Source of the DNA: Escherichia phage vB_EcoM_EC001 | Sequence record: MN445185.1 | Length of the DNA stretch: 64,000 bases | Direction: 5' to 3' (one strand) | Shown: in pieces, positions 48,350-60,700 of the stretch | How the letters are laid out: each line of letters starts with the position of its first letter | Numbering within the stretch: position 1 is the stretch's first letter | Program-made: the position numbers and the translations under genes | Notes under the pieces: generated by a model | Database searches by the model: none | Seen by the model: the letters and a program-made list of their open reading frames with translations, nothing else | Told to the model about the DNA's origin: nothing

Positions 48350-51300
48350 TTAGGTACGGAACATAAGATTGACCTGGATAATATCAGGCTGTTGCCATCC
48401 TCTCTCGTTCACCCAATCGTGCGCAATCGTTAACGTAAGATCATCGCCATCCCACGCCACGATCGGTGGTGGGAATAAACCCTGAGCGCCCGTGGTAACA
48501 ACCGGAATTGCACCCGCCACATCCACAAACGTGTAGCTACGGCTGTTCAAAACAACTGGTGTGCCGTAGGTCTCTCCCCCCAATGGTAAGATTTGAATCT
48601 TACTATCCGAAAGATCGGTGGTGATTGGTAGTCCCCCCGCGTCCGTGAAAAGCCAAGAGCAAATATGCTGGTTGGCCATCTCAAGCGCTGGGGAACTCAA
48701 CACAGCAGCGAAAGTAAACGTACATGGCACGCCTGCGGGCAGAGAATGCTGTTTGTGATACACGGTATGTGGTGTCGGCATTAACACTTCTGGATTTTCA
48801 TCAATGTTAACATCCTTACCTTCCGCCTCGACGTTGTAGAGAAATCTATCTACCGTATCCCATGGGGCGATGTTGACATTAAAGGTCGTTTCTACTCCCG
48901 GTGTACCTGGGACGACGAATTTACTTTGTATCACCACTATCATCATTCCTGAGGTCGGAGAGAAAGCAGGCGTAGGGATACCCACCCACTCCATTCCCAA
49001 CGATGCCGCTTCACCGTTCTCATCGGCCGTTACCGTCGCAATTGTTGTAGGATGTTTCCAAAACGCCCCCGACTTGTTTGCCTGAGTAAACGCCGGCAAA
49101 GTTTTCAAGCCTTCGAAACGTTTGGAGACCATCGGTTTACCGCGACGCTGTGCGTCAGATACGGTATAAAGCAACTGACTATCCAGATAGCCTTTCGTAG
49201 CATCGATCGACAAAGGACCCATCGCTTCTTTACGCAATGGTGCCAGTCTGCCCGTTGCCGCATCCCTTCCCACTTCCACATCATGCTTATTCTCAACCGC
49301 CGCATGTTCCAACAGTTGTTTCACCGCACCCAATCGCTTAGCATGTTCGACGTTAGTCTCGACGACTCGCGACGAGCCCGTTTTAACATACCCGATATAG
49401 AGTTCCGTTTCAGTGTCTGGATGTTGAACCACGTCCATTACGTACTTCGGTGTACCATTTTCTACCTTGGCGTGCAGGTAGAATGTCCGGTTCTGATGGT
49501 TTGTTGGAAATGCTGCGCTGAGGTCAATATACCACGTAGGCAGCTTATAAGTGCTCGAGCCGAAACGCAGGTCAACTTCCTCAGTCACATATACCAGCCA
49601 ACCTTCAGCTGTTTCCACACCAGCAATGACGACCGATTCAGTCGGGCCACTAAAATTAGGAGCCGCGACAAAATCTCTCGACGACGTTGCGATACCACCA
49701 CAATAGACGTAGTCGAGAGATGAGTTGTGTAACATCACTTGATCGCGATGTGCCAGATAAGCTGGACTGACTGGAGTGTGTGACGGTGCCATACGTCCAA
49801 CGCCGTGTGCGGCAGAAGAACGCGTCCAAGTACCATTAGACAGCGTAAGACCAACAGCGTAGTTAAGCGCACCCAAGTCGCCAATCAGGCGCAAGGTTAA
49901 CGTGTGTGGAAGATACAACCCGAACTGCGTACCATCTACCGACACCATGGTAGGTTGTCCCGGCCGGCGTGTTTTTCCTCCCGTTATCTCTCCCAACGTA
50001 GCATAGTTCAAGCCATAGTCGAGGTTGTTATAGAAGTCAAACAATGCCAATATCGCTGCCGGGAATGTTACCTGCCCGTTGCTGATTGTTGGTTTCAGTG
50101 TAAAGTAGTAGATATCCAACACGTTAACGTTGTTCACAGTACGCGTACATGCTACTTGTGCTAACGTGAGCGGTGTGGCCGTACCAATGCCGATGAACCA
50201 AACAGAGAACAGTGCCTTTCCTGCGTTATTTGCGGCAAGGATATATTCCGAAGCATAACCATTCGCAGCGCCTGCCGGTGCTCCGTCGATGATCATCTGC
50301 TTCATCTTATTCCATTCAGCTTGTGACAGCGTCAACCGATCGGCATGAATCGTGAAAGTGCCAGAAACGTTGTGGTAAGGGAATGTTTCTGGCCCTGTGC
50401 AATACCAGCCGTTTAACTCTGTACCAGGCGACGCCGGTGTAACAATGTGGCACATCTGCGACAGATTCTCGTACGTGGTAGAATCCACTACACGACGATT
50501 GTTAGTTGGTCCATACCCCACTTTACCTGAGTAAGTGGTGTTCGGATCAAACTCAACCTCAATTGCCAAACGGGAACGTGGCTGTGACAACCAGATAAGT
50601 CTGGAATTCGCTCCCAGAGTCAGTGGATACGCCATACCCAGCTCGTAGATAGAACCACGACCTTGGTTTAACGTTACCGCACTAAACCTTCTGGCAGTGA
50701 AGTTGTAGTCGCACGACAGGTACTCGTACCAACTCACACCGTCGTCTAACGTGGTAATCGTGACAATTGGCATTAGGTCACGATCGCTGGCATGTCCTTG
50801 CGAAACGATATATTTGTCTTGCGATGTTGCAAAGGTTTGGTTATTAGCTTGACCTTCGCCCCACTTCCGGCTCGGAATCCCAATCTCAGCACCACCGTTA
50901 TAACGAACCGCGGTAAGATCAGCCACAATAGGGAATCGATCAGCCCCTTCCAGCGTTACCGTCATTGAACTGCAATCAACAACAAAGCTTGACACCCATT
51001 GTTTAAAGCTAATCGTCTGCCCTGTGCTGGAGGCAAACCAGACTGTTGGCGTTAAACCAACACGAAAGTTCAGCCCATCAACACCAATCGCGTGATTACA
51101 CTCAGGACCATGTACAAAGTTAGTTGCATTGTTCCACTTCGCTAACGCGTCTGCGTAGATCTGTGTAACTGGTGCTGGGAGCGCATCGGAAGGTGCACGT
51201 TTCTGTCCCTGTCGCAGATAAACGTTTTCACCCGACGTTAATATCCCGCCTGTTAACGCATCCGCCACAAACGTGTTGCTACCACCCGGATTAAGTTCGT

Positions 51301-53533
51301 TGAGTGCGATGCTACGCATACTCACGAAATAGTTACCGGAGGTAAGCACCGTACGCAACAGGTAGACACGTTCATTACAAACAATCAAATCGTCTGTAGA
51401 AGCGTTTGGAGCCCACGGTGCTGTCGTTACTGTGCCCGCACCATTACCGTTCTTGTAATCACCCAACACCACTTTAACAACACGATGATGTTTTGCATGG
51501 TCAATCGTCCCATCGAAGATGACCAGGTAGTACGCACCGTCACTGCCTAAGCAGATCATTGCATCGGTACCGGTAATCACAATAGCAACCAGATTCACCC
51601 CAGGATACGCCGACATTCCAGCGGGTCGATAGCGTACGGACGTCTGCTGCATATTTTCCAGCGTATTGCTTGGCGACACATCAGCATAGGCGTAATAGAT
51701 AGCCCAGTCACCTGGTGGATTCCCGTTAGAACCGTTACGGAGCGAGTAAACCTTACCAGACTCGTAACGCGCCAAACCTTTCTGCCAGGTTTGGTTTTTG
51801 GTGTACCCTTCGTAGTTCCCCTGGACAGGTATAGGCAAGAAGTTATTGTTGCCGTACGATGATCCGCCAACGGTCCATGCTGGCAACAACGTAGCAATCT
51901 TGTCGTTCAGTGTACCGATTTTCTGTTCGAGCAAGAAACCCTGGCGGGCAGTAACCATCTTATCTGTTGTGGTGTCAATAGCGTCCCACAGTTTAGCCAA
52001 ACCTGTAACAGACGTGGATGCGTACGGCACGTTATCGAGATCGGCAATGGTGTGGGTGTGCGTTGAGAGTGCCTTGCCTGATAGCACGGTGCGCAACGCA
52101 TTAGTAACCGGTTTCTCCAGCGGTCCGGTATTGTTCATCTTCTCAATACCGAAATCCGACGCGGTTAAGGTTAAATGCATTTGCCCGTTTTCGTCTAACA
52201 CAAACCCTTTACCATTGACCGTATACGTGTCGTCCACATATCCGTCGAGTTTGTTCTTCAAGTCAGTAACAGCTTTTTGGGAAATCGCTGTGGACGCCGC
52301 GGCGGACGCCGAAAGGTTAGTAATCGCAAACAAGCCCTGCACAGTTGTGGTTGCTGCAGGCAGCTCCGCATTCATGTAAACTTTGTTTGTTTCTTTACCA
52401 GAGCCGTAAATCTTCAACGTGTCGCTGGATTTGAAGTAGGCGTTTGCTGGAAGTATCTTCACCGAGGTCAAGTACATCTTAACCATATCCGGTGTAACGA
52501 GATACACGCCGTTATACACAGGTGCAAGCACACCCGCATCATAATCGCCCCATTTGTCACCTGCTTTACCCGAGTGAACCCAAAGCGTGTTCAGACCAGC
52601 GCTGAACTCCGTAGCGATACCCGGTTCGTTGTTATCCTGATCAGCTTTTAATACCAGCGGTTTTGTCGAGGTGATAATGAACTTCTCACCTTTCATGCTG
52701 ATAACGTGACCGGATGTTGTTTGGAACGTAATCGCGTCGTTATTCAGAACACGCATACGGCCCAGTAAATCACCCAGGGTATTATCCAGAAGCATGTCAA
52801 CGTGTTTTTGTTGGATGCCGCTGGTAGACATTAACGTCACTAACTCTGCCAGGGTACGTCCAAACGCCTTGGTCGCATCTACGGCCTTGCCGAGTACCGG
52901 GAGTGCGCCAATGTCACCGCAGGTGTAACCATGTGCATTTTTAATCAGATGGTGTTGATACATTTCGTCATCAAACACCTGCTTACCGTTCTGATAAATC
53001 AAATCGGTAACTTCGGCAAATGCCTCATCCAGTTCGTGGGCACGTTCTAAAATGCCCAGTCGGATATCTTCCAGCGCCTTTACAATCTCATCGCGAAGGA
53101 TGGCTTCTTCGAGATCTTTTGGCGGATCGATTGGTGAAATGATCGGCGGATATTTCATCAACTCAGACCAATCGCAGTTACGCGGGTCTTTCATATCCGT
53201 CTTAACCAGATACTTGCCGATTTCAGAAGCAGGGATGCGATACTGTCGACCAACCGACAACAACTCGTATTCTAGCTCTGTGGCGTTCAGCAGCATTATG
53301 CTGCCGTATATTGCATCGTTCTCAGCCTCGGCTAATTCCTGGAAGTAATGTCCTAAGAAATAATCAAGACCTTCTATTAACTTGCGTTTGGTTCCGGTTG
53401 TTTTATCGGTAACGGTTAACGTTAACCCGATGCGATAGAACGGTGCTTCGACGGGAATGACCGTCGAATAACGGTTCGGGTAAGTAGCGGTACTGAGGGT
53501 ACCGTTAAACTGCGCCGCATCTTCTCTCGGCAT
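48350..53533 (-). CDS. Giant tail-fibre-like structural protein (about 1727 aa)
   Basis: ATG 53533 with AGGAG SD; track TTG start 53578 lies in a hairpin region; shared fibre N-domain. Confidence 0.75.
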   Translation of the reverse strand: MPREDAAQFNGTLSTATYPNRYSTVIPVEAPFYRIGLTLTVTDKTTGTKRKLIEGLDYFLGHYFQELAEAENDAIYGSIMLLNATELEYELLSVGRQYRIPASEIGKYLVKTDMKDPRNCDWSELMKYPPIISPIDPPKDLEEAILRDEIVKALEDIRLGILERAHELDEAFAEVTDLIYQNGKQVFDDEMYQHHLIKNAHGYTCGDIGALPVLGKAVDATKAFGRTLAELVTLMSTSGIQQKHVDMLLDNTLGDLLGRMRVLNNDAITFQTTSGHVISMKGEKFIITSTKPLVLKADQDNNEPGIATEFSAGLNTLWVHSGKAGDKWGDYDAGVLAPVYNGVYLVTPDMVKMYLTSVKILPANAYFKSSDTLKIYGSGKETNKVYMNAELPAATTTVQGLFAITNLSASAAASTAISQKAVTDLKNKLDGYVDDTYTVNGKGFVLDENGQMHLTLTASDFGIEKMNNTGPLEKPVTNALRTVLSGKALSTHTHTIADLDNVPYASTSVTGLAKLWDAIDTTTDKMVTARQGFLLEQKIGTLNDKIATLLPAWTVGGSSYGNNNFLPIPVQGNYEGYTKNQTWQKGLARYESGKVYSLRNGSNGNPPGDWAIYYAYADVSPSNTLENMQQTSVRYRPAGMSAYPGVNLVAIVITGTDAMICLGSDGAYYLVIFDGTIDHAKHHRVVKVVLGDYKNGNGAGTVTTAPWAPNASTDDLIVCNERVYLLRTVLTSGNYFVSMRSIALNELNPGGSNTFVADALTGGILTSGENVYLRQGQKRAPSDALPAPVTQIYADALAKWNNATNFVHGPECNHAIGVDGLNFRVGLTPTVWFASSTGQTISFKQWVSSFVVDCSSMTVTLEGADRFPIVADLTAVRYNGGAEIGIPSRKWGEGQANNQTFATSQDKYIVSQGHASDRDLMPIVTITTLDDGVSWYEYLSCDYNFTARRFSAVTLNQGRGSIYELGMAYPLTLGANSRLIWLSQPRSRLAIEVEFDPNTTYSGKVGYGPTNNRRVVDSTTYENLSQMCHIVTPASPGTELNGWYCTGPETFPYHNVSGTFTIHADRLTLSQAEWNKMKQMIIDGAPAGAANGYASEYILAANNAGKALFSVWFIGIGTATPLTLAQVACTRTVNNVNVLDIYYFTLKPTISNGQVTFPAAILALFDFYNNLDYGLNYATLGEITGGKTRRPGQPTMVSVDGTQFGLYLPHTLTLRLIGDLGALNYAVGLTLSNGTWTRSSAAHGVGRMAPSHTPVSPAYLAHRDQVMLHNSSLDYVYCGGIATSSRDFVAAPNFSGPTESVVIAGVETAEGWLVYVTEEVDLRFGSSTYKLPTWYIDLSAAFPTNHQNRTFYLHAKVENGTPKYVMDVVQHPDTETELYIGYVKTGSSRVVETNVEHAKRLGAVKQLLEHAAVENKHDVEVGRDAATGRLAPLRKEAMGPLSIDATKGYLDSQLLYTVSDAQRRGKPMVSKRFEGLKTLPAFTQANKSGAFWKHPTTIATVTADENGEAASLGMEWVGIPTPAFSPTSGMMIVVIQSKFVVPGTPGVETTFNVNIAPWDTVDRFLYNVEAEGKDVNIDENPEVLMPTPHTVYHKQHSLPAGVPCTFTFAAVLSSPALEMANQHICSWLFTDAGGLPITTDLSDSKIQILPLGGETYGTPVVLNSRSYTFVDVAGAIPVVTTGAQGLFPPPIVAWDGDDLTLTIAHDWVNERGWQQPDIIQVNLMFRT

Positions 53534-53628
53534 TGCAAACACTCCTAATCTGTAATAAAACGGAGACCGCCCTCCCAATAACGGAAGGGCGGTTTACCTA
53601 CGGACTACCCGCCCGTAGGCAGTCCGTC

Positions 53629-56600
53629 CTAAGAGGCCCACTCACCCGAGTTGTTGCCTTCGTTTCTACGTTCAGTATCCAACGTTTGTAAAATCCAATC
53701 CCATGTCCTGGTGGGGATGTGGAATGGATTACGCTTCTCAATGAGAATCGTCTCGCCACCCGTGCGAAGTTCCACCGGTGTCGTTTCAGTAATCACGAAC
53801 ATCGGATTACCACTACTACCCACACCGTTAATAGTGAACTTCGCTTGTAGCGGCGGCACAGAACCTTCCGGAGGCACGAACACGATGTGAATTGGCTGCA
53901 TCGGTTTCGTGCGGGCAAGAGTCCCAGATATCTGAACAGCTGTTGTCGATGCACTGAAAGGTATAACATTACCCGGAATTTTCTCACTACCCACGACGAT
54001 ATATCCAGGGTAGTTAGAGAGCATTGTCCCATTTACCGACACAAAACGCTCAGTTTGAGTTGGGCGATAAGCCCGCATAAAGCCGTACTTCCATTCACCA
54101 CCGTTAGACGTATAGTCTGCAGGAGCCGACTCAAGTAGCGGAGCACCACGTTTCTGCAGCCCTTTATAAAACGGCGCTGGGAGTTTACCGTTCGGTGCAA
54201 GTTCCGGATAACCCTCACTTGCAGCAGACATCGTGATGTATTCCGTAACCGGGTGATCAACGTTATCTCCAAATGACGCAAAAGGTACCGTTGTTACTGT
54301 CATCTCCTCGTGGCCGGAAGACTGTCTATCTGGTGTCCTTTCAATATACGACTCAAACAGTGAACGTAAATAATGGAAACGATTTATATCCACATCTGAG
54401 ATGATCGGCTGCATCAAACCGTGGTTAATAGTCACGTTGTCTCCAGTTTCAATACCGGAAACGTGGATGGCTAGCGCCCCACCTTTAAAGTAATCGATCG
54501 CATCAAACGGAATGTCGTATTCCATTTCGTAAACCTGCACCAGCGGATTGGCTATCAACTTAGAAACCATTGAGATGCGCAGTACCTGCGTATCAACAAT
54601 GTATCGATAACGTACAAGCCAACGATCTCCAAGCGGCGCAAGCTCACTATCGGTATGAACCGAAAGAAAATCTAAACACTCGGTAGATTGGCTCGTCAGG
54701 TTTTTAATTACCCTCGGATTTTCAAGCACCTTATTTGTAACACTGCCCTGCGTGGTCGAGATGATGCCTCCAGTTGCTTGGTTATAAGGAGACGTGATGA
54801 AGCCACAATTCAATTCTGGACGATTGCCACTCCATCTCAGTACCCTAGTCTTGCTTTTATCATCTGCAGACGGGGCCATGAAGTTTAATGTGATATCGCG
54901 ATCGCGAACAGTTTGCGCTTCCGACAAATCAACATCGACCACCACAGAACCTTCAAACGTCGCCATCCCTTTTTCTTTCGGGTTGCTTGGTGTAAACCAG
55001 CAGTACGGTGATGCGCTTTCTGTGGAGACAACCGCTCCAACAAACACTAGGCTTGAAATGGTGCTATCAAATTTATAATCGAATAACCCTCGGTCTAATC
55101 GAATATAGTGGTTACCAGAAACTGGACTATTAGGGTACGCATAAAGCCACTGTTTAGGCAACGGATCGACTTTGTTTAGCGGTAACATTTTTGGGTTATC
55201 CGTCAACGACCAGTCGGCATTACTCACTCCGTGTGCCAGACGTGTTTCGAAGTGCCGTTTAAGTTCGGACGCCATGCCAAAATCAAACGTCGTTTCAAAC
55301 TCGTAAGTCGTACCTGCAACCAATCCCGTCTCTGGTACATCAATATGTCCGATATAGCCGCGTTCCAAGTTAATACCTTCCGTGTCCACAATAGGTTCGG
55401 CGCGCGAATATAACGCATCGGTTATCATGTTCACATAGAGGTAATGCCTTAAACCATTCGGCGTCTTAACAAACTCCTGCAGGCGGGCAACTTTGGTGTT
55501 TTTATCCGAGGCCCCAACCGCAAAGTCACCGTCGTAAATTGTGAAACGAATTGCGGCTGCTTTAGCGCTATCGTTACACTCGGCACGGAATGCTAAGCAG
55601 TGTTGCTTCCACCCCTCCTTGACAGTCGCCTCCAGATACCCCGCTTCTGTAATACCCGCACCGATAATTTCACCGTCCAGATAAACAGAAACAGCACCAC
55701 CGCCACGAACCCAAATCCGCAGCTTACCAGAGTCGCAACGAACCCACGTTTTCGCCAAGAGGTTAACGACTGACAAATCACCCATTCCGGTTGTCGTTAA
55801 ACCAATCTGCGCACCGTAGTTCGTTTCCGGGACGGCAACCTCAAACCCACTAAAATCAATACCGGCACCGGTATTAATTACCGCGTTCTGCCACGTTCTT
55901 TCCATACGGTTATCTGGAGAGAACCACTGGAACATCGGTGTGGTTTGCAGGTCTATCGAACCAGATACCGTCCCCTCTTTACGTGCGCCATTTAACAGAT
56001 AGAAATAATTCAAATCCGTTATGGCGAGTGTGGTACGTGCTGACCCCACAGTCCAAGTCTTACCACGCACAGCGGCAAAATCGGTCACGGAATCCTCTTT
56101 CGCGTTTGCTAGCGCAGCTGCAACTACGTCTAAACGTTTTGACAAATCGTTCAGAACGTTCGGGGTAACGCCGCGATTACCCGACAAGCCGTTTAGGTTG
56201 GTAGAATATCGAGCGATACCGGGAACTGTTTGAGAAGCCGTTGGGATCTGTAAATCGGCGAAGTTGTGATGATGGCCTTTATCGCTAAGACCGGTAACTG
56301 CTTCTGCCAACGCATCAGAAAGTGGTTTATCGACGTCAGCTGTGTTATCAGCCAAGTCCAGACCCAAATCCTTTTTCGTTAGCGTTCGGCTACCAGTGTC
56401 CATCGGCTGGTTATTCAGCAGCGTTGTCTTCCTGACGTACGAAGACAGATCACCCTCGTACGGTAAGAGCGAAGCTGGGGTGGCTGCTTGTCCTTTGACT
56501 ACATCGCTCGGCTTATCAGTCAGCGTCACAACGCCGGGTTCAGAGGTCGTGGCGGGTTTGGCTGTAACCTTCCCGGTGACGGGATCGGCTTTTGACCCTT

Positions 56601-57759
56601 TGCCCGTGAAAGTAATACCGTTCACCCCGCTAATGTACAGTTTGTTGTCATCCGGGTCAACGGTACCGCCGCCGGTACCAGGGTCTTGTTGATAGCCCAT
56701 GAGAGCGGTGGTGGTCAGCAACGTTGTTCCGTTAAGTGTCAGCTTATCCATCCCCAAGGCACTGCCGGTTGACTCAATACGTAACGTATTGATGCCTGCT
56801 TTCCACTCCATAAACCGGACGGTTCCAGTAGTGTCAGCATACCCACACGCCAGCACGACAGAGCCATTAGATTTAAGAGTGAATGCCTCAGCAGAGAACA
56901 CAATTTCGGATTCGCCAGCAGGAGAACGGAACAGGGCACGAGTACCAGATATCGTCGCGTTAAACACCCCTTTGGATTCTTTCGATACCCATTTAGAAAT
57001 GTACTTGTCGATATCCGATTGTTGCAGGCCCAGTGCACGGACCTCGCTGGTTAATTGACGCAACGTCTTTCCATACGCCAGGAAAGTATCTGGCGTTTTC
57101 AGGTTGACAGGATGCGCCCCGGCCTGCGCCGCGGTAGTCCCATGAGGGTTAGTGGACGCAATGTGTCCGGGGTAGTTAAATGTGGCGATTTCAGTTCCTA
57201 AGCCCAGAACCGTATCTTTCAGCTCGGTAAGCTTTTCACGAATCTGCTCGTTGGCCGCCCCGGCATCTAACTCCACATCATGCACTGCAGAGGCAACATA
57301 CTTTTTATTCAGCATGTCTGACCAAGCTACCGCTGCGGGGGTGGCTGGGTACAGGGAAGGTCGATTACCTAAAAGCAGCCAATCTGCAGCCGTTGGATTG
57401 TTGAGAGCCTTAATTAACTCATCCAACATCTCAATCAGACCACTGTAAAACGTACCCCCGAGCATCTGGCCTTCAAAGACCACTGCACCACGCAGTTTAG
57501 GGTTAATAAGATGCACCCCACAGAACACCGGGGTCGTCACCGAGTCGTCCAACGGCGTTAAAGCATACTCCAGCTCATAGTCCGTCCCGCGGGTAAGCGG
57601 TATGGTCGAGCCGGCGAGCATTACCACCAATCCTTCGAAAAATGGGCGATGATCTAGCATCACCACCCGATCGTTAGGATTGTCGGAGTCGATGATACGT
57701 TCCTCGATGAAGTGACACTCGGGATTTACACCCCGAGGATCGTAAGGATACGTTTTCAT
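53629..57759 (-). CDS. Giant tail-fibre-like structural protein (1376 aa)
   Basis: AAGGAG SD; N-domain with PFF..GTDYELEY. Confidence 0.75.
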   Translation of the reverse strand: MKTYPYDPRGVNPECHFIEERIIDSDNPNDRVVMLDHRPFFEGLVVMLAGSTIPLTRGTDYELEYALTPLDDSVTTPVFCGVHLINPKLRGAVVFEGQMLGGTFYSGLIEMLDELIKALNNPTAADWLLLGNRPSLYPATPAAVAWSDMLNKKYVASAVHDVELDAGAANEQIREKLTELKDTVLGLGTEIATFNYPGHIASTNPHGTTAAQAGAHPVNLKTPDTFLAYGKTLRQLTSEVRALGLQQSDIDKYISKWVSKESKGVFNATISGTRALFRSPAGESEIVFSAEAFTLKSNGSVVLACGYADTTGTVRFMEWKAGINTLRIESTGSALGMDKLTLNGTTLLTTTALMGYQQDPGTGGGTVDPDDNKLYISGVNGITFTGKGSKADPVTGKVTAKPATTSEPGVVTLTDKPSDVVKGQAATPASLLPYEGDLSSYVRKTTLLNNQPMDTGSRTLTKKDLGLDLADNTADVDKPLSDALAEAVTGLSDKGHHHNFADLQIPTASQTVPGIARYSTNLNGLSGNRGVTPNVLNDLSKRLDVVAAALANAKEDSVTDFAAVRGKTWTVGSARTTLAITDLNYFYLLNGARKEGTVSGSIDLQTTPMFQWFSPDNRMERTWQNAVINTGAGIDFSGFEVAVPETNYGAQIGLTTTGMGDLSVVNLLAKTWVRCDSGKLRIWVRGGGAVSVYLDGEIIGAGITEAGYLEATVKEGWKQHCLAFRAECNDSAKAAAIRFTIYDGDFAVGASDKNTKVARLQEFVKTPNGLRHYLYVNMITDALYSRAEPIVDTEGINLERGYIGHIDVPETGLVAGTTYEFETTFDFGMASELKRHFETRLAHGVSNADWSLTDNPKMLPLNKVDPLPKQWLYAYPNSPVSGNHYIRLDRGLFDYKFDSTISSLVFVGAVVSTESASPYCWFTPSNPKEKGMATFEGSVVVDVDLSEAQTVRDRDITLNFMAPSADDKSKTRVLRWSGNRPELNCGFITSPYNQATGGIISTTQGSVTNKVLENPRVIKNLTSQSTECLDFLSVHTDSELAPLGDRWLVRYRYIVDTQVLRISMVSKLIANPLVQVYEMEYDIPFDAIDYFKGGALAIHVSGIETGDNVTINHGLMQPIISDVDINRFHYLRSLFESYIERTPDRQSSGHEEMTVTTVPFASFGDNVDHPVTEYITMSAASEGYPELAPNGKLPAPFYKGLQKRGAPLLESAPADYTSNGGEWKYGFMRAYRPTQTERFVSVNGTMLSNYPGYIVVGSEKIPGNVIPFSASTTAVQISGTLARTKPMQPIHIVFVPPEGSVPPLQAKFTINGVGSSGNPMFVITETTPVELRTGGETILIEKRNPFHIPTRTWDWILQTLDTERRNEGNNSGEWAS

Positions 57760-57771
57760 TCAAAAATCTCC

Positions 57772-60700
57772 TTAATCACGAATAATAAGTGTTCGACCTG
57801 ACGTGTTTTGCGGATTGAACGTCATCATCTTGGATGGGTGTGTCGCCAGCGGAATTTTACCTGTATCCACTGGTCGGAACGAACTGTATGAATAGTTGCA
57901 CATCGCGCTGTTCATCTCATTAATCGTTGAACCTGCTTCCACCACGCCAGTAAAGAATCTTGCGCGGTTTAAGCCGGAATAGTTAATCGCATAGTCAAGG
58001 AACGTGGCGTAATAACGATTCTTTATCGGCATCGTGTTCAGGTTAGCGTAAGTCAAACGCGCTTCTGTGTCGGAACTAAACAAACCACCCGCGCCGTGAT
58101 AAATCGGCGTACTCGGATCGGTAATCAGTTTCGTCAAGTCGATATAATCAGGACGGAGACGGGTAGACAAATCCTCAGTCCACGACTCGCCGGTCGACTG
58201 CAAGGTGTATCTCAGCGTCTTTGTTGTCGCGGTTAGCGTCAGCTCAAAGTTGATCGTTTTGGAATCGATGTTAATCGTTCCCTCGAACGAAATACCGTCC
58301 GCTGTTCGCGTGTGGCTGAAACGCACCGACGGATTAAGTGCCGTCCAGTCATGGCCGGAACCAGTAACACCATTCAAGCCAATAACAACCTGCGCAGCAC
58401 GTCCGTAGTTAACCGCGATTCCCGCATACGTGCTCACGCCGCCTGGAGTGGTAATACGCCCTGCGGTGCGTGCGACGAGTACAGAAATACGGTGCATGAA
58501 CGTGGCCGAGTGATGGCAACACCCAATTACCGTTTCTAGCACACTGTCCGCTGTTGCGGTTAAAGGTGTCCACGTTGCGGTAATGCCGTTATTCTGGAAC
58601 ATCGGGAATGTGTTGTGGACAAAACGATAATCGGTTACAGATAAACTGGTTGTTTTAAACGTCCATTTATCAGCAGCCGGATCGTAGTCCGCTTTCAACA
58701 TAGGCGTATAGCTGCTAGCCTGCGCGTAACGCCAATCAGCATCTATACGTTTTGTACCCGGTGCGCCCGTGGACCACACAGGCCCGCCTGTACCGTAAGT
58801 AAATCCGAATTCAGCTTGCGTCATGCTCCGTCGAATATGGGCGTTATCATCCTCGATATGCTCGCCTAATTCACGAAACTCACCTAAACGCGTCACGTTG
58901 CGGATTTCTACAAAAACCACACCGGTTTCACTGGTGATGATGGAACCTATTTTGGTCATCGTCTCAGTTTCTGCCGTGTTTGGATTTTCGTAGATAATGT
59001 ACTTGCCATCATCGCCCGCCGCGTCAACATACACGCCAAACTCAGCATCTTCGTGCGTCGCTGGGAATAGCTCCGCCAAGTTAAATGTGGAGAGAGGTAC
59101 TTTGTACTCGCGACCAACGAAATAATCGTTCGCTTTAATAGTAACCATCCAGTCGGTGTAAGTGATGCCGTTTTCAATGATATCCGTGCCGGGTAAACCG
59201 TAACGAATAATGTTGATTGAAGCACCAGAGTCGACTGTCTTCGCAACCTTCTCTATCTCTGTGATAGCGTCCGCCTGTCGGATGACCACACCGCCGTCTA
59301 ATGCCAGCGTGGCATCGTCAACCACGGTGCCGAACTGTACTAAACCGAACTCCGTCGTTGTTGCACGCTTAATCCCGAACGCAGCAGAAGTGTGTTTGTG
59401 ACCGACGACTGCATACTTGTCCAGCTCAGCTTGTTGGAGCGGGGAAATCGGCAATTGCACATCTGGGATGTTCTGTACGTTCGATAAGCCGAAGTTAGTT
59501 TTATCGATGTAAATAGAACTCGTCAGTGGCATGTCGTTGATGTACGATTTAACGGCAACCAACTTGCCCGTAAACTGCTGATCCAATTTCTTGATGAGTG
59601 CCGGCGTTGCGGCCAAGTCCTCACGATCACCGAATTCAGTAGCCAACAAACGGACAGCCATCAGGCCAAGGTCGTCGGACTCCGGTGGAACAAAAGTACA
59701 AATGAACGGAACAGACTGAATACCGTTACCGTTAATAGTTACAGTAGCTGTGGATGTTCCGTAAAACAGTCCATCACCACCTGACTCGTTACCCGGCAAA
59801 TACGGCCCGACCGTAGTAGGGTCCAACAGTTTCTTACCGTTGAACTCCAATCCACGGGAATCCGGATAAAGGATGAGTTGGTTAGCACCGCCTTGCCATG
59901 TGATCGGGTTGTTCCCGGCGTTAACGGTTTGCGAATCGCGTCCAATAAAACGGATAACCCTCGGGTCAACCGTGAATTGTGCACCCACGCCTTCAGACTC
60001 ATCGGTACCCACTGCCGACGTTATCGAAGTCAGGCCAGGCTTCATACCGAACGTGCCGTTGATAGACTGTGCAGCCGCCGGTAAACGTAAAAGCTTATTC
60101 GCCAGCGTTGACAGTTTCGGCAACAGATTGTTAACGTAATCTGTCAGCTGCGGTTGCGTTTTTCCGTATACCAGTGTCGCGTCCGAAGCAATACCGTTAT
60201 TCTCCAAAGCACGGATTGCGCCCCACGAATCGCGATGTGGGTTATCCTTGCGCGGCACGTGCGCATGTGCCGGCGCATCACGGTACAGTTTATCGACAAT
60301 CTGGTGATATTTTACCAGCAGCTGGTACACGTCATTGTTAACGTCAGGTGCCGGTGCGCCTGGTAATGAACGAATCTGGACGTAATCGTTCTCACCTGCC
60401 CACCAGTTTAGGTTGACGCCCGATTTAAACTTCAACCATTTTGCGACATCAGTTTTCTGATACCCTGGTGCAAATTCGCTCGGTGGGTTGTCAACGTTAA
60501 AGCTGTAGTTAACGGTTTGCTTACTTGTTTTAACGATAATGTCGTAAACGCCGTTACCTTCGCGTCTGACCACGCTAAGCTCAATATCACCCGCCAACTC
60601 GGTATCGGTCAGGCCAGTCGTCAACGTATAGCTGTAATTAGACGAACCAGAACCAATCGCCGTCGTTAAGGTAAGATAAATCGCGCGTTGCTTCAACTGA

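Follow-up and report, generated by a model that had tools for sequence, protein, structure and literature searches.

The 95-nt spacer between the homologues of SPN3US gp169 and gp168 encodes, on the minus strand, a conserved and very stable RNA structure consisting of a first hairpin (hp1) and a second hairpin (hp2) followed by a U-rich tail. Judging from sequence and folding, hp2 with its tail is most likely a terminator-type element of the phage's own class, whereas termination itself is what we infer from this resemblance. Covariation indicates that hp1, upstream of this hairpin, keeps two alternative folds through evolution, a feature that was previously unreported. On balance, the spacer is probably a cis-acting RNA of a late baseplate/fibre operon (gp170-gp169 / element / gp168-gp167), in which it would serve as a leaky intra-operon terminator and 3'-end protector, with hp1 in an accessory role.

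Genomic setting of the gp169-gp168 spacer

The window, i.e. the whole stretch of 64,000 nucleotides that was analysed (MN445185.1), comes from an SPN3US-like jumbo phage (Seoulvirus), which in this region shares 98% identity with Escherichia phage Lh1B and 93% with SPN3US. Four consecutive genes at 47100-61485 on the minus strand are homologues of SPN3US gp170, gp169, gp168 and gp167. They are paralogues with a common N-terminal domain (PHROG 2163), and all genes at the locus lie on this strand. The four proteins were published as low-abundance baseplate/tail-fibre candidates on the basis of virion proteomics, and gp168 as a homologue of phiKZ ORF145 (PMC5105663, PMC5694885). The term "fibre genes" in the original prediction was imprecise, as virion proteomics identifies the proteins as baseplate/fibre candidates and not as proven fibres. 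Spectral counts per mass in the virion were 1.41 for gp169, 1.08 for gp168 and 1.00 for gp170 (PMC5694885).

The spacer occupies positions 53534-53628 completely, from the stop codon of the gp169 homologue to the ATG of the gp168 homologue on the minus strand. The coordinates originally given for this spacer and for the gp168-gp167 spacer were exact, and the complementary segments listed were all present. The transcribed strand reads UAG-GACGGAC-[hp1]-A-[hp2]-CUCCG-UUUUAUUA-(N6)-AGGAG-(N8)-AUG, with only about 20 nt between the U-tract and the Shine-Dalgarno sequence of gp168. The stop codon adjoins the element in every relative. The features are as follows.

53629-57759, minus: gp169 homologue, 1376 aa (ORF list)
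53629..53631, minus: UAG stop codon of the gp169 homologue, at which the structured element begins (ORF list and sequence)
53623..53631, minus: 5' strand of the basal helix, UAGGACGGA, which pairs with UCCGUUUUA (53564-53556) and closes a three-way junction (MFE folds)
53595..53621, minus: hp1, fold A, 11-bp stem UGCCUACGGGC/GUCCGUAGGUA with loop GGGUA (folding, -18.2 kcal/mol)
53600..53627, minus: hp1, alternative fold B/C, ACGGACUGCCU (53627-53617) paired with GGGUAGUCCGU (53610-53600) (MFE of the isolated hp1 region, -19.0)
53566..53593, minus: hp2, terminator-type, 12-bp G+C-rich stem ACCGCCCUUCCG/UGGGAGGGCGGU with loop UUAU (-22.4 kcal/mol, z = -6.0)
53553..53565, minus: tail, 5-nt spacer CUCCG and U-rich tract UUUUAUUA (sequence and terminator scan)
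53531..53546, minus: Shine-Dalgarno sequence AGGAG (53546-53542) and ATG (53533-53531) of the gp168 homologue, 1727 aa (start annotated in Lh1B and SPN3US; N-terminus conserved)

The junction between gp170 and gp169 (57760-57771, minus) comprises only 12 nt, and its stop codon UAA overlaps the Shine-Dalgarno sequence (UAAGGAG). This suggests translational coupling, unlike the 95-nt structured junction one gene downstream. Sequence identity along the locus is mosaic. The gp169 homologue is 100% identical to that of Lh1B and 87% to that of SPN3US, while gp168 is about 94-95% identical to both, which suggests recombination with a breakpoint near the spacer.

Stability and strand of the structure

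Folding of the minus-strand RNA, which had been proposed as a check, yielded a very stable structure. The 116-nt RNA reached -54.2 kcal/mol (z = -4.5), a value equalled by none of 200 shuffles, and the 79-nt core from the UAG stop codon to the U-tract reached -50.0 kcal/mol (z = -7.3). The plus strand folded less well (-41.1 kcal/mol, z = -3.1) and contained neither a promoter-like site nor a U-tract; a function of the plus strand was rejected for these reasons. Many of the conserved pairs are G-U and would turn into A-C on the opposite strand, so that the selected structure is that of the transcribed minus strand.

The complementary segments had been regarded as a nested multi-stem element. 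The segments exist, but they form two hairpins and an alternative fold of hp1 instead of a nest. Both "ccgccctcc/gaagggcgg" and "gggcgg/ccgccc" represent the two arms of the single 12-bp hairpin hp2 (53593-53566). The pair "cctacgg/ccgtagg" corresponds to hp1 (53621-53595), while "ggact/agtcc" is a mutually exclusive alternative pairing of the same bases and is not nested with it. A pairing "gggcgg/ccgccc" of the hp1 loop with an hp2 arm occurred only in the SPN3US lineage and was taken as chance.

A scan with Rfam covariance models of positions 40000-64000 on both strands gave no match at E <= 1, and ARAGORN detected 0 tRNA or tmRNA genes in positions 46000-64000. Stop-codon read-through or a frameshift fusing gp169 to gp168 was rejected, since both frames are closed and the spacer lengths of 87-97 nt are not frame-preserving. 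In frame with gp169 a second UAG follows the first after 7 sense codons, and the gp168 frame is closed by a UAA in the linker between hp1 and hp2.

Conservation across relatives

Compared with SPN3US the spacer showed 0 mismatches in 95 positions, although the flanking gp169 and gp168 genes were only 87% and 95% identical and 5-12 substitutions were expected. The identity of the spacer beside diverged genes indicates purifying selection. The element was detected by blastn (E <= 10) in 45 of 50,697 phage records, at one place per genome. The covariance model also gave one strong match per genome (54-86 bits), and no other TCCGTTTTATT or hp1-motif sites were present outside coding sequence. The search for further copies in the genome, which had been suggested originally, was thus carried out and showed a single copy per genome; a repeated element was rejected on the basis of blastn, motif search and covariance model.

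Homologous spacers, 87-97 nt long and built in the same way, were found in Seoulvirus, Erskinevirus, Machinavirus and Wellingtonvirus and in uncultured contigs. The comparative set comprised 19 distinct spacer sequences, from which the covariance model was built, and a metagenome scan added only two slightly new variants. Compensatory changes were present in every helix across the four genera. The more distant Derbicusvirus phages CR5, Phobos and Derbicus (L030-L032, positions 640-644) possess the homologous gene pair with a junction of 3-4 nt and without the element. As these relatives manage without it, the element is not essential to the gp169-gp168 pair in general. In Vibrio phage pVa-21 (L033, 535-667), this place in the operon is taken by an unrelated spacer of 133 nt. 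Its 20-bp hairpin is nearly perfect and precedes a U-rich stretch, and it looks like a terminator-like arrangement that arose independently.

Hairpin 2, the tail and terminator-type hairpins of the phage

Hairpin 2 starts 35 nt past the gp169 UAG. Five distinct hp2 stems occurred in the relatives (ACCGCCCUUCC, ACCCCACCC, ACCCCUCCCU, ACCGCCC and GCCGUCCC), and all of them were perfectly paired. As MAFFT and covariance-model alignments misregister hp2 in some lineages, its covariation was taken from per-sequence folds, which revealed compensatory changes at 4 of 7 basal positions. Of the 19 aligned sequences of relatives, 12 had a UUCG loop and 1 had a UCCG loop. In the tail, UCC and UUUU were invariant among the first 14 sequences aligned. 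The tract UUUUAUUA begins 5 nt beyond the hp2 stem, i.e. past the canonical 0-2 nt, but inside the range of 0-6 nt observed for the other terminator hairpins of the phage. The basal helix ACGGA/UCCGU would adjoin this U-tract.

In a scan of 18 kb, hp2 was the top terminator-like site. The strong intergenic hairpins of the window are single G+C stems, mostly with UUCG loops, and are followed 0-6 nt later by TTTAT-rich tracts. Of the 8 occurrences of TTTTATTW in the window, 6 lie just 3' of strong intergenic hairpins, most of which are UUCG-looped. With its tail TTTTATTA the element belongs to this class, a tetraloop hairpin with a TTTTATTW tail within 6 nt. Apart from the element itself, its covariance model gave only weak matches (10-20 bits), which were located at other terminators of the window. 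A search of the window for the published phiKZ terminator motif BCCYCCCCHWWDGGGRRGGBYTTAT gave 0 matches, even with 3 mismatches allowed, so that the likeness to phiKZ terminators is generic only. A literature search for transcription, terminator, RNA-seq/Term-seq or 3'-end data on the SPN3US clade found none.

Further hairpins were noticed in the scan. After gp167, positions 47035-47099 (minus) contain a 15-bp hairpin, ACGAGC-CGGACUAUGU ... ACAUAGUCCG-CUCGU, followed by UCUACUUUUUA (z = -4.5). Its stem is wholly different in sequence yet paired in other genera, i.e. covarying, and together with its U-rich tail this hairpin probably terminates the fibre operon. Its stem in the SPN3US lineage, CGGACU/AGUCCG, resembles the alternative fold of hp1. 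At 40384-40414, 41621-41644 and 62823-62847 (both strands), perfect hairpins with an A-tract at one flank and a T-tract at the opposite flank are located at strand switches and look like bidirectional terminators.

Alternative folds of hairpin 1

Two mutually exclusive structures of hp1 were each backed by covariation. In fold A, 97.4% of cells were paired in the 19 sequences, and compensatory changes were found at 3 pairs (C-G/U-A; A-U/G-U/G-C; and G-C to A-U in pEa_SNUABM_9). Fold B excludes both fold A and the basal helix, the 5' strand of which also provides the bases for its outer helix. In this outer helix the stop-proximal GGAC(GG) pairs with GUCC of the hp1 3' arm, and it is rebuilt with other bases elsewhere (GGGUA/UACCC, ACGGG/CCCGU, GGACGG/CCGUCC). 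The inner helix pairs the linker and the start of the 5' arm with the "loop" of fold A and is capped by a UACG/UGCG-type loop; it was 86.8% paired, with compensatory changes in 5 of 6 pairs. Fold B overall had 80.7% of cells paired, compared with about 33-48% in slid controls, and compensatory changes affected 7 of its pairs. Fold A plus basal helix was 88.3% paired, compared with about 36-44% in slid controls.

The basal helix UAGGACGGA/UCCGUUUUA was paired in 78% of cells (19 sequences). One clear co-change, from ACGG/CCGU to AAGG/CCUU, was present in the pSal-SNUABM-04 group, in which the native duplex of flank and tail had -8.0 kcal/mol versus -0.8 to -6.1 kcal/mol with swapped partners. 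In this group the basal helix uses up the entire U-tract. It is weak in three lineages (L013 group, Caitlin and L022). In a distinct lineage of uncultured contigs of about 200-225 kb (L013-L017, L040-L044), the tail is changed from CCG to CCA and the flank from ACGG to ACAG, which is non-compensatory. Fold B is the predicted optimum in these contigs, and another upstream segment (GGAU) pairs with the tail.

The energies of fold A and of the alternatives were computed with soft constraints. For the hp1 region alone, the best A fold and the best non-A fold were at most 4.5 kcal/mol apart in all 19 sequences, and 10 of the 19 favoured the non-A fold. When the tail was included, the three-way junction containing fold A was optimal in 17 of the 19. 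Stepwise folding of growing transcripts gave fold B first, and the optimum changed to fold A plus basal helix only once UCCG(U) had emerged.

The hairpin in the gp168-gp167 spacer

A second G+C-rich hairpin had been pooled with the element. It lies in positions 48303-48349, which are the entire 47-nt spacer between gp168 and gp167 on the minus strand.

48320..48337, minus: short hairpin UGGGGC-AAGGAA-GCCCCA, 9 nt upstream of the gp167 Shine-Dalgarno sequence AAGGAG (48315-48310) (folding, z = -2.3)

The stem covaries in five lineages (GGGGC/GCCCC, GGGACA/UGUCCU, GGGGGC/GCCCUC), the loop always holds GGA (AAGGAA, AUGGAC, ACGGAC, AGGA), and the spacer has no U-tract after the hairpin. Judging from the missing U-tract and the GGA loop, this hairpin is a real conserved feature of a different kind from the element at 53534-53628 and not a terminator, so that the two do not belong together. 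The GGA loop and the nearby Shine-Dalgarno sequence of gp167 are reminiscent of CsrA/RsmA two-site operators.

Proposed function

The original prediction that the spacer may modulate read-through or stabilise transcript segments appears to be of the right class for 53534-53628, given the anatomy of hp2 and tail, the position after the stop codon and the covariation, with termination as the inferred step. The core, hp2 and the U-rich tail, would be an intrinsic, factor-independent terminator of the type used throughout the phage genome, and would be recognised, within the phage nucleus, by the multisubunit RNA polymerase that the phage itself encodes. Acting as an intra-operon attenuator, it would produce the end of a gp170-gp169 transcript while a fraction of the polymerases continues. 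If it terminates, it must be leaky, because the level of gp168 in the virion is close to that of gp169 and there is no room downstream of the hairpin for a gp168 promoter of its own. During synthesis fold B would form first, as a long hairpin using bases adjacent to the stop codon. When the tail has been transcribed, the thermodynamic optimum would be fold A with the basal helix UAGGACGGA/UCCGUUUUA, and both stop codon and U-tract would be buried in the resulting three-way junction. A terminated RNA would then end in fully paired bases, which may protect it from 3' exonucleases. The efficiency of termination may depend on the partition between folds B and A during transcription, as this could determine the frequency with which the basal helix extends to the U-tract.

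In SPN3US and Asesino, transcription is kept apart from translation by a phage nucleus (PMC13282480). Because of this separation, ribosome-coupled attenuation is unlikely, and signals consisting of structure only are to be expected. At hp1, a check for attenuators found neither a leader ORF nor a match to a ligand-type Rfam family. Several points count against the proposed role. The short U-tract UUUUAUUA, 5 nt off the hp2 stem, would be a weak terminator for a bacterial RNA polymerase, and the similar amounts of gp168 and gp169 in the virion show no large step in expression. The mismatch to the literal phiKZ motif, the weakness of the basal helix in three lineages and the element-free junction of the Derbicusvirus phages likewise speak against it.

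A further reading of hp1, which we put forward tentatively and regard as rather unlikely, is that of a built-in, ribosome-independent RNA switch for the polymerase of the phage nucleus. Fold B would then be an anti-terminator sequestering GGACGGA, and refolding to fold A would allow GGACGGA to pair with UCCGU at the U-tract and so trigger termination. The kinetic partition between B and A would set the ratio of gp170/169 to gp168/167 transcripts, and a phage factor, temperature or polymerase speed might tune it.

Alternative explanations

A purely post-transcriptional role was also considered, i.e. a barrier to 3'-5' exonucleases in the cytoplasm, or a site for RNase III or RNase E that splits the gp170-169 and gp168-167 segments, in the manner of the RNase III sites of T7, with different half-lives of the two segments. 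The very high stability (-50 kcal/mol) and the start of the element exactly at the stop codon in all lineages are compatible with this role, and the near-equal amounts of gp168 and gp169 in the virion suit processing better than strong termination (PMC5694885). A helix of nearly two turns could arise if the basal helix is stacked on hp1 (9 + 11 bp) or in an extended fold B, and a duplex of the RNase III type is predicted here only by such coaxial stacking or extended fold. However, no uninterrupted duplex of at least 20 bp is present, and the UUCG loop and the TTTTATT of hp2 and its tail recur in terminators of the phage; such features would be needless for a mere exonuclease barrier. A role of this kind without termination is considered unlikely.

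It is improbable that gp168 is controlled through the element as a translational operator or as a binding site for a protein. In that case a phage or host RNA-binding protein would bind hp1 with its repeated GGAC/ACGG motifs and UNCG-type loop, or the free CUCC of the tail would pair with GGAG of the Shine-Dalgarno sequence when the basal helix is open, tuning gp168 translation. The conservation of the sequence itself and not just of the pairing, with GGACGG, CCGUAGG and UCCGUUUUAUU nearly invariant, would agree with this, as would the two alternative folds, which are typical of regulatory platforms, and the invariant UCC/GGA pairing of the tail with the Shine-Dalgarno sequence given by RNAalifold. 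This last pairing comprises just 3-4 bp, encloses about 17 nt of loop and lacks covariation; moreover, no candidate protein emerged, and hp2 is left unexplained.

Enterobacterial sRNAs derived from 3'UTRs consist of a conserved 5' segment, an internal hairpin and a terminator hairpin with a U tail. The architecture of the element would fit such an sRNA of 80-100 nt (hp1-hp2-U tail), released from the gp169 mRNA and acting in trans with GGACGG as seed and the terminator as Hfq-binding module, and phiKZ makes abundant short terminator-bounded RNAs of 71 and 141 nt (PMC10914365). This explanation is quite improbable, as no promoter-like site was found in the scan, the putative seed is paired in both folds, and no Rfam family matched.

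A chance palindrome or a DNA-level element (cruciform or recombination site) without RNA function was already disfavoured and is very improbable: G+C-rich inverted repeats can arise in spacers and the flanking paralogues show mosaic identity, but the compensatory changes in every helix across four genera, the conserved G-U pairs, which suit the transcribed strand only, the 0 of 95 substitutions where 5-12 were expected and the z-scores of -4.5 to -7.3 argue against it.

Comparison with known systems

In phages phiKZ and 201phi2-1, transcript 3' ends were mapped by ONT-cappable-seq at 133 and 132 sites, respectively (PMC10914365, PMC11512511). The intrinsic terminators among these sites consist of a stem-loop followed by TTAT, and many of them lie inside gene clusters and are read through (PMC10914365, PMC11512511). 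The element resembles these phiKZ-like terminators in its G+C hairpin with C-rich 5' arm and G-rich 3' arm and in the TTAT-containing U-rich tract a few bases further on; terminators of this kind are frequent, leaky, often located in co-directional clusters, and used by phage multisubunit RNA polymerases. It differs in that the literal motif is unmatched, the U-tract is 5 nt off the stem, a second conserved hairpin with two folds lies directly upstream, and the basal helix can enclose both hairpins.

Tandem-hairpin and A-tract/U-tract-extended terminators are recognised classes of bacterial terminators. The element shares with them two adjacent stem-loops before the U-tract and a sequence upstream of the hairpins whose pairing with the U-tract region leaves the 3' end fully paired. 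In the element, however, this upstream sequence reaches across two hairpins to form a three-way junction, includes part of the stop codon region, and is in competition with fold B of hp1.

As in attenuators and the expression platforms of riboswitches, two exclusive conserved folds lie next to a terminator, and the fold predicted to form first sequesters a strand of the helix that abuts the U-tract. In contrast to these systems, there is no leader peptide, ligand pocket or known binding protein, the element is located at the 3' end of a gene and not in a 5' leader, hp2 is disturbed by neither fold, and transcription takes place in a ribosome-free compartment. The RNase III sites between T7 genes are likewise conserved, stable, imperfect stems between late genes of a polycistronic transcript, and cleavage could leave a protective 3' hairpin. 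The element has no unbroken duplex of some 20 bp that carries the internal loop typical of such sites, and its U-tract and UUCG loop point to termination.

Significance

If the element merely stops or stabilises transcripts, it would be an ordinary feature. Small and highly stable, it is also a candidate terminator for use in the synthetic biology of enterobacteria, and the Derbicusvirus phages would provide a natural loss-of-element control for its contribution. To our knowledge, no termination factors are known for the polymerases of nucleus-forming jumbo phages, whose promoters are minimal and to whose transcription ribosomes cannot couple. A conserved terminator-type element at a fixed place in the operon would be a concrete cis-element with which to study termination and mRNA stability in these phages. 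The switch reading of hp1, if true, would be considerably more interesting. It would give the non-canonical RNA polymerases of the Chimalliviridae their first described attenuator.
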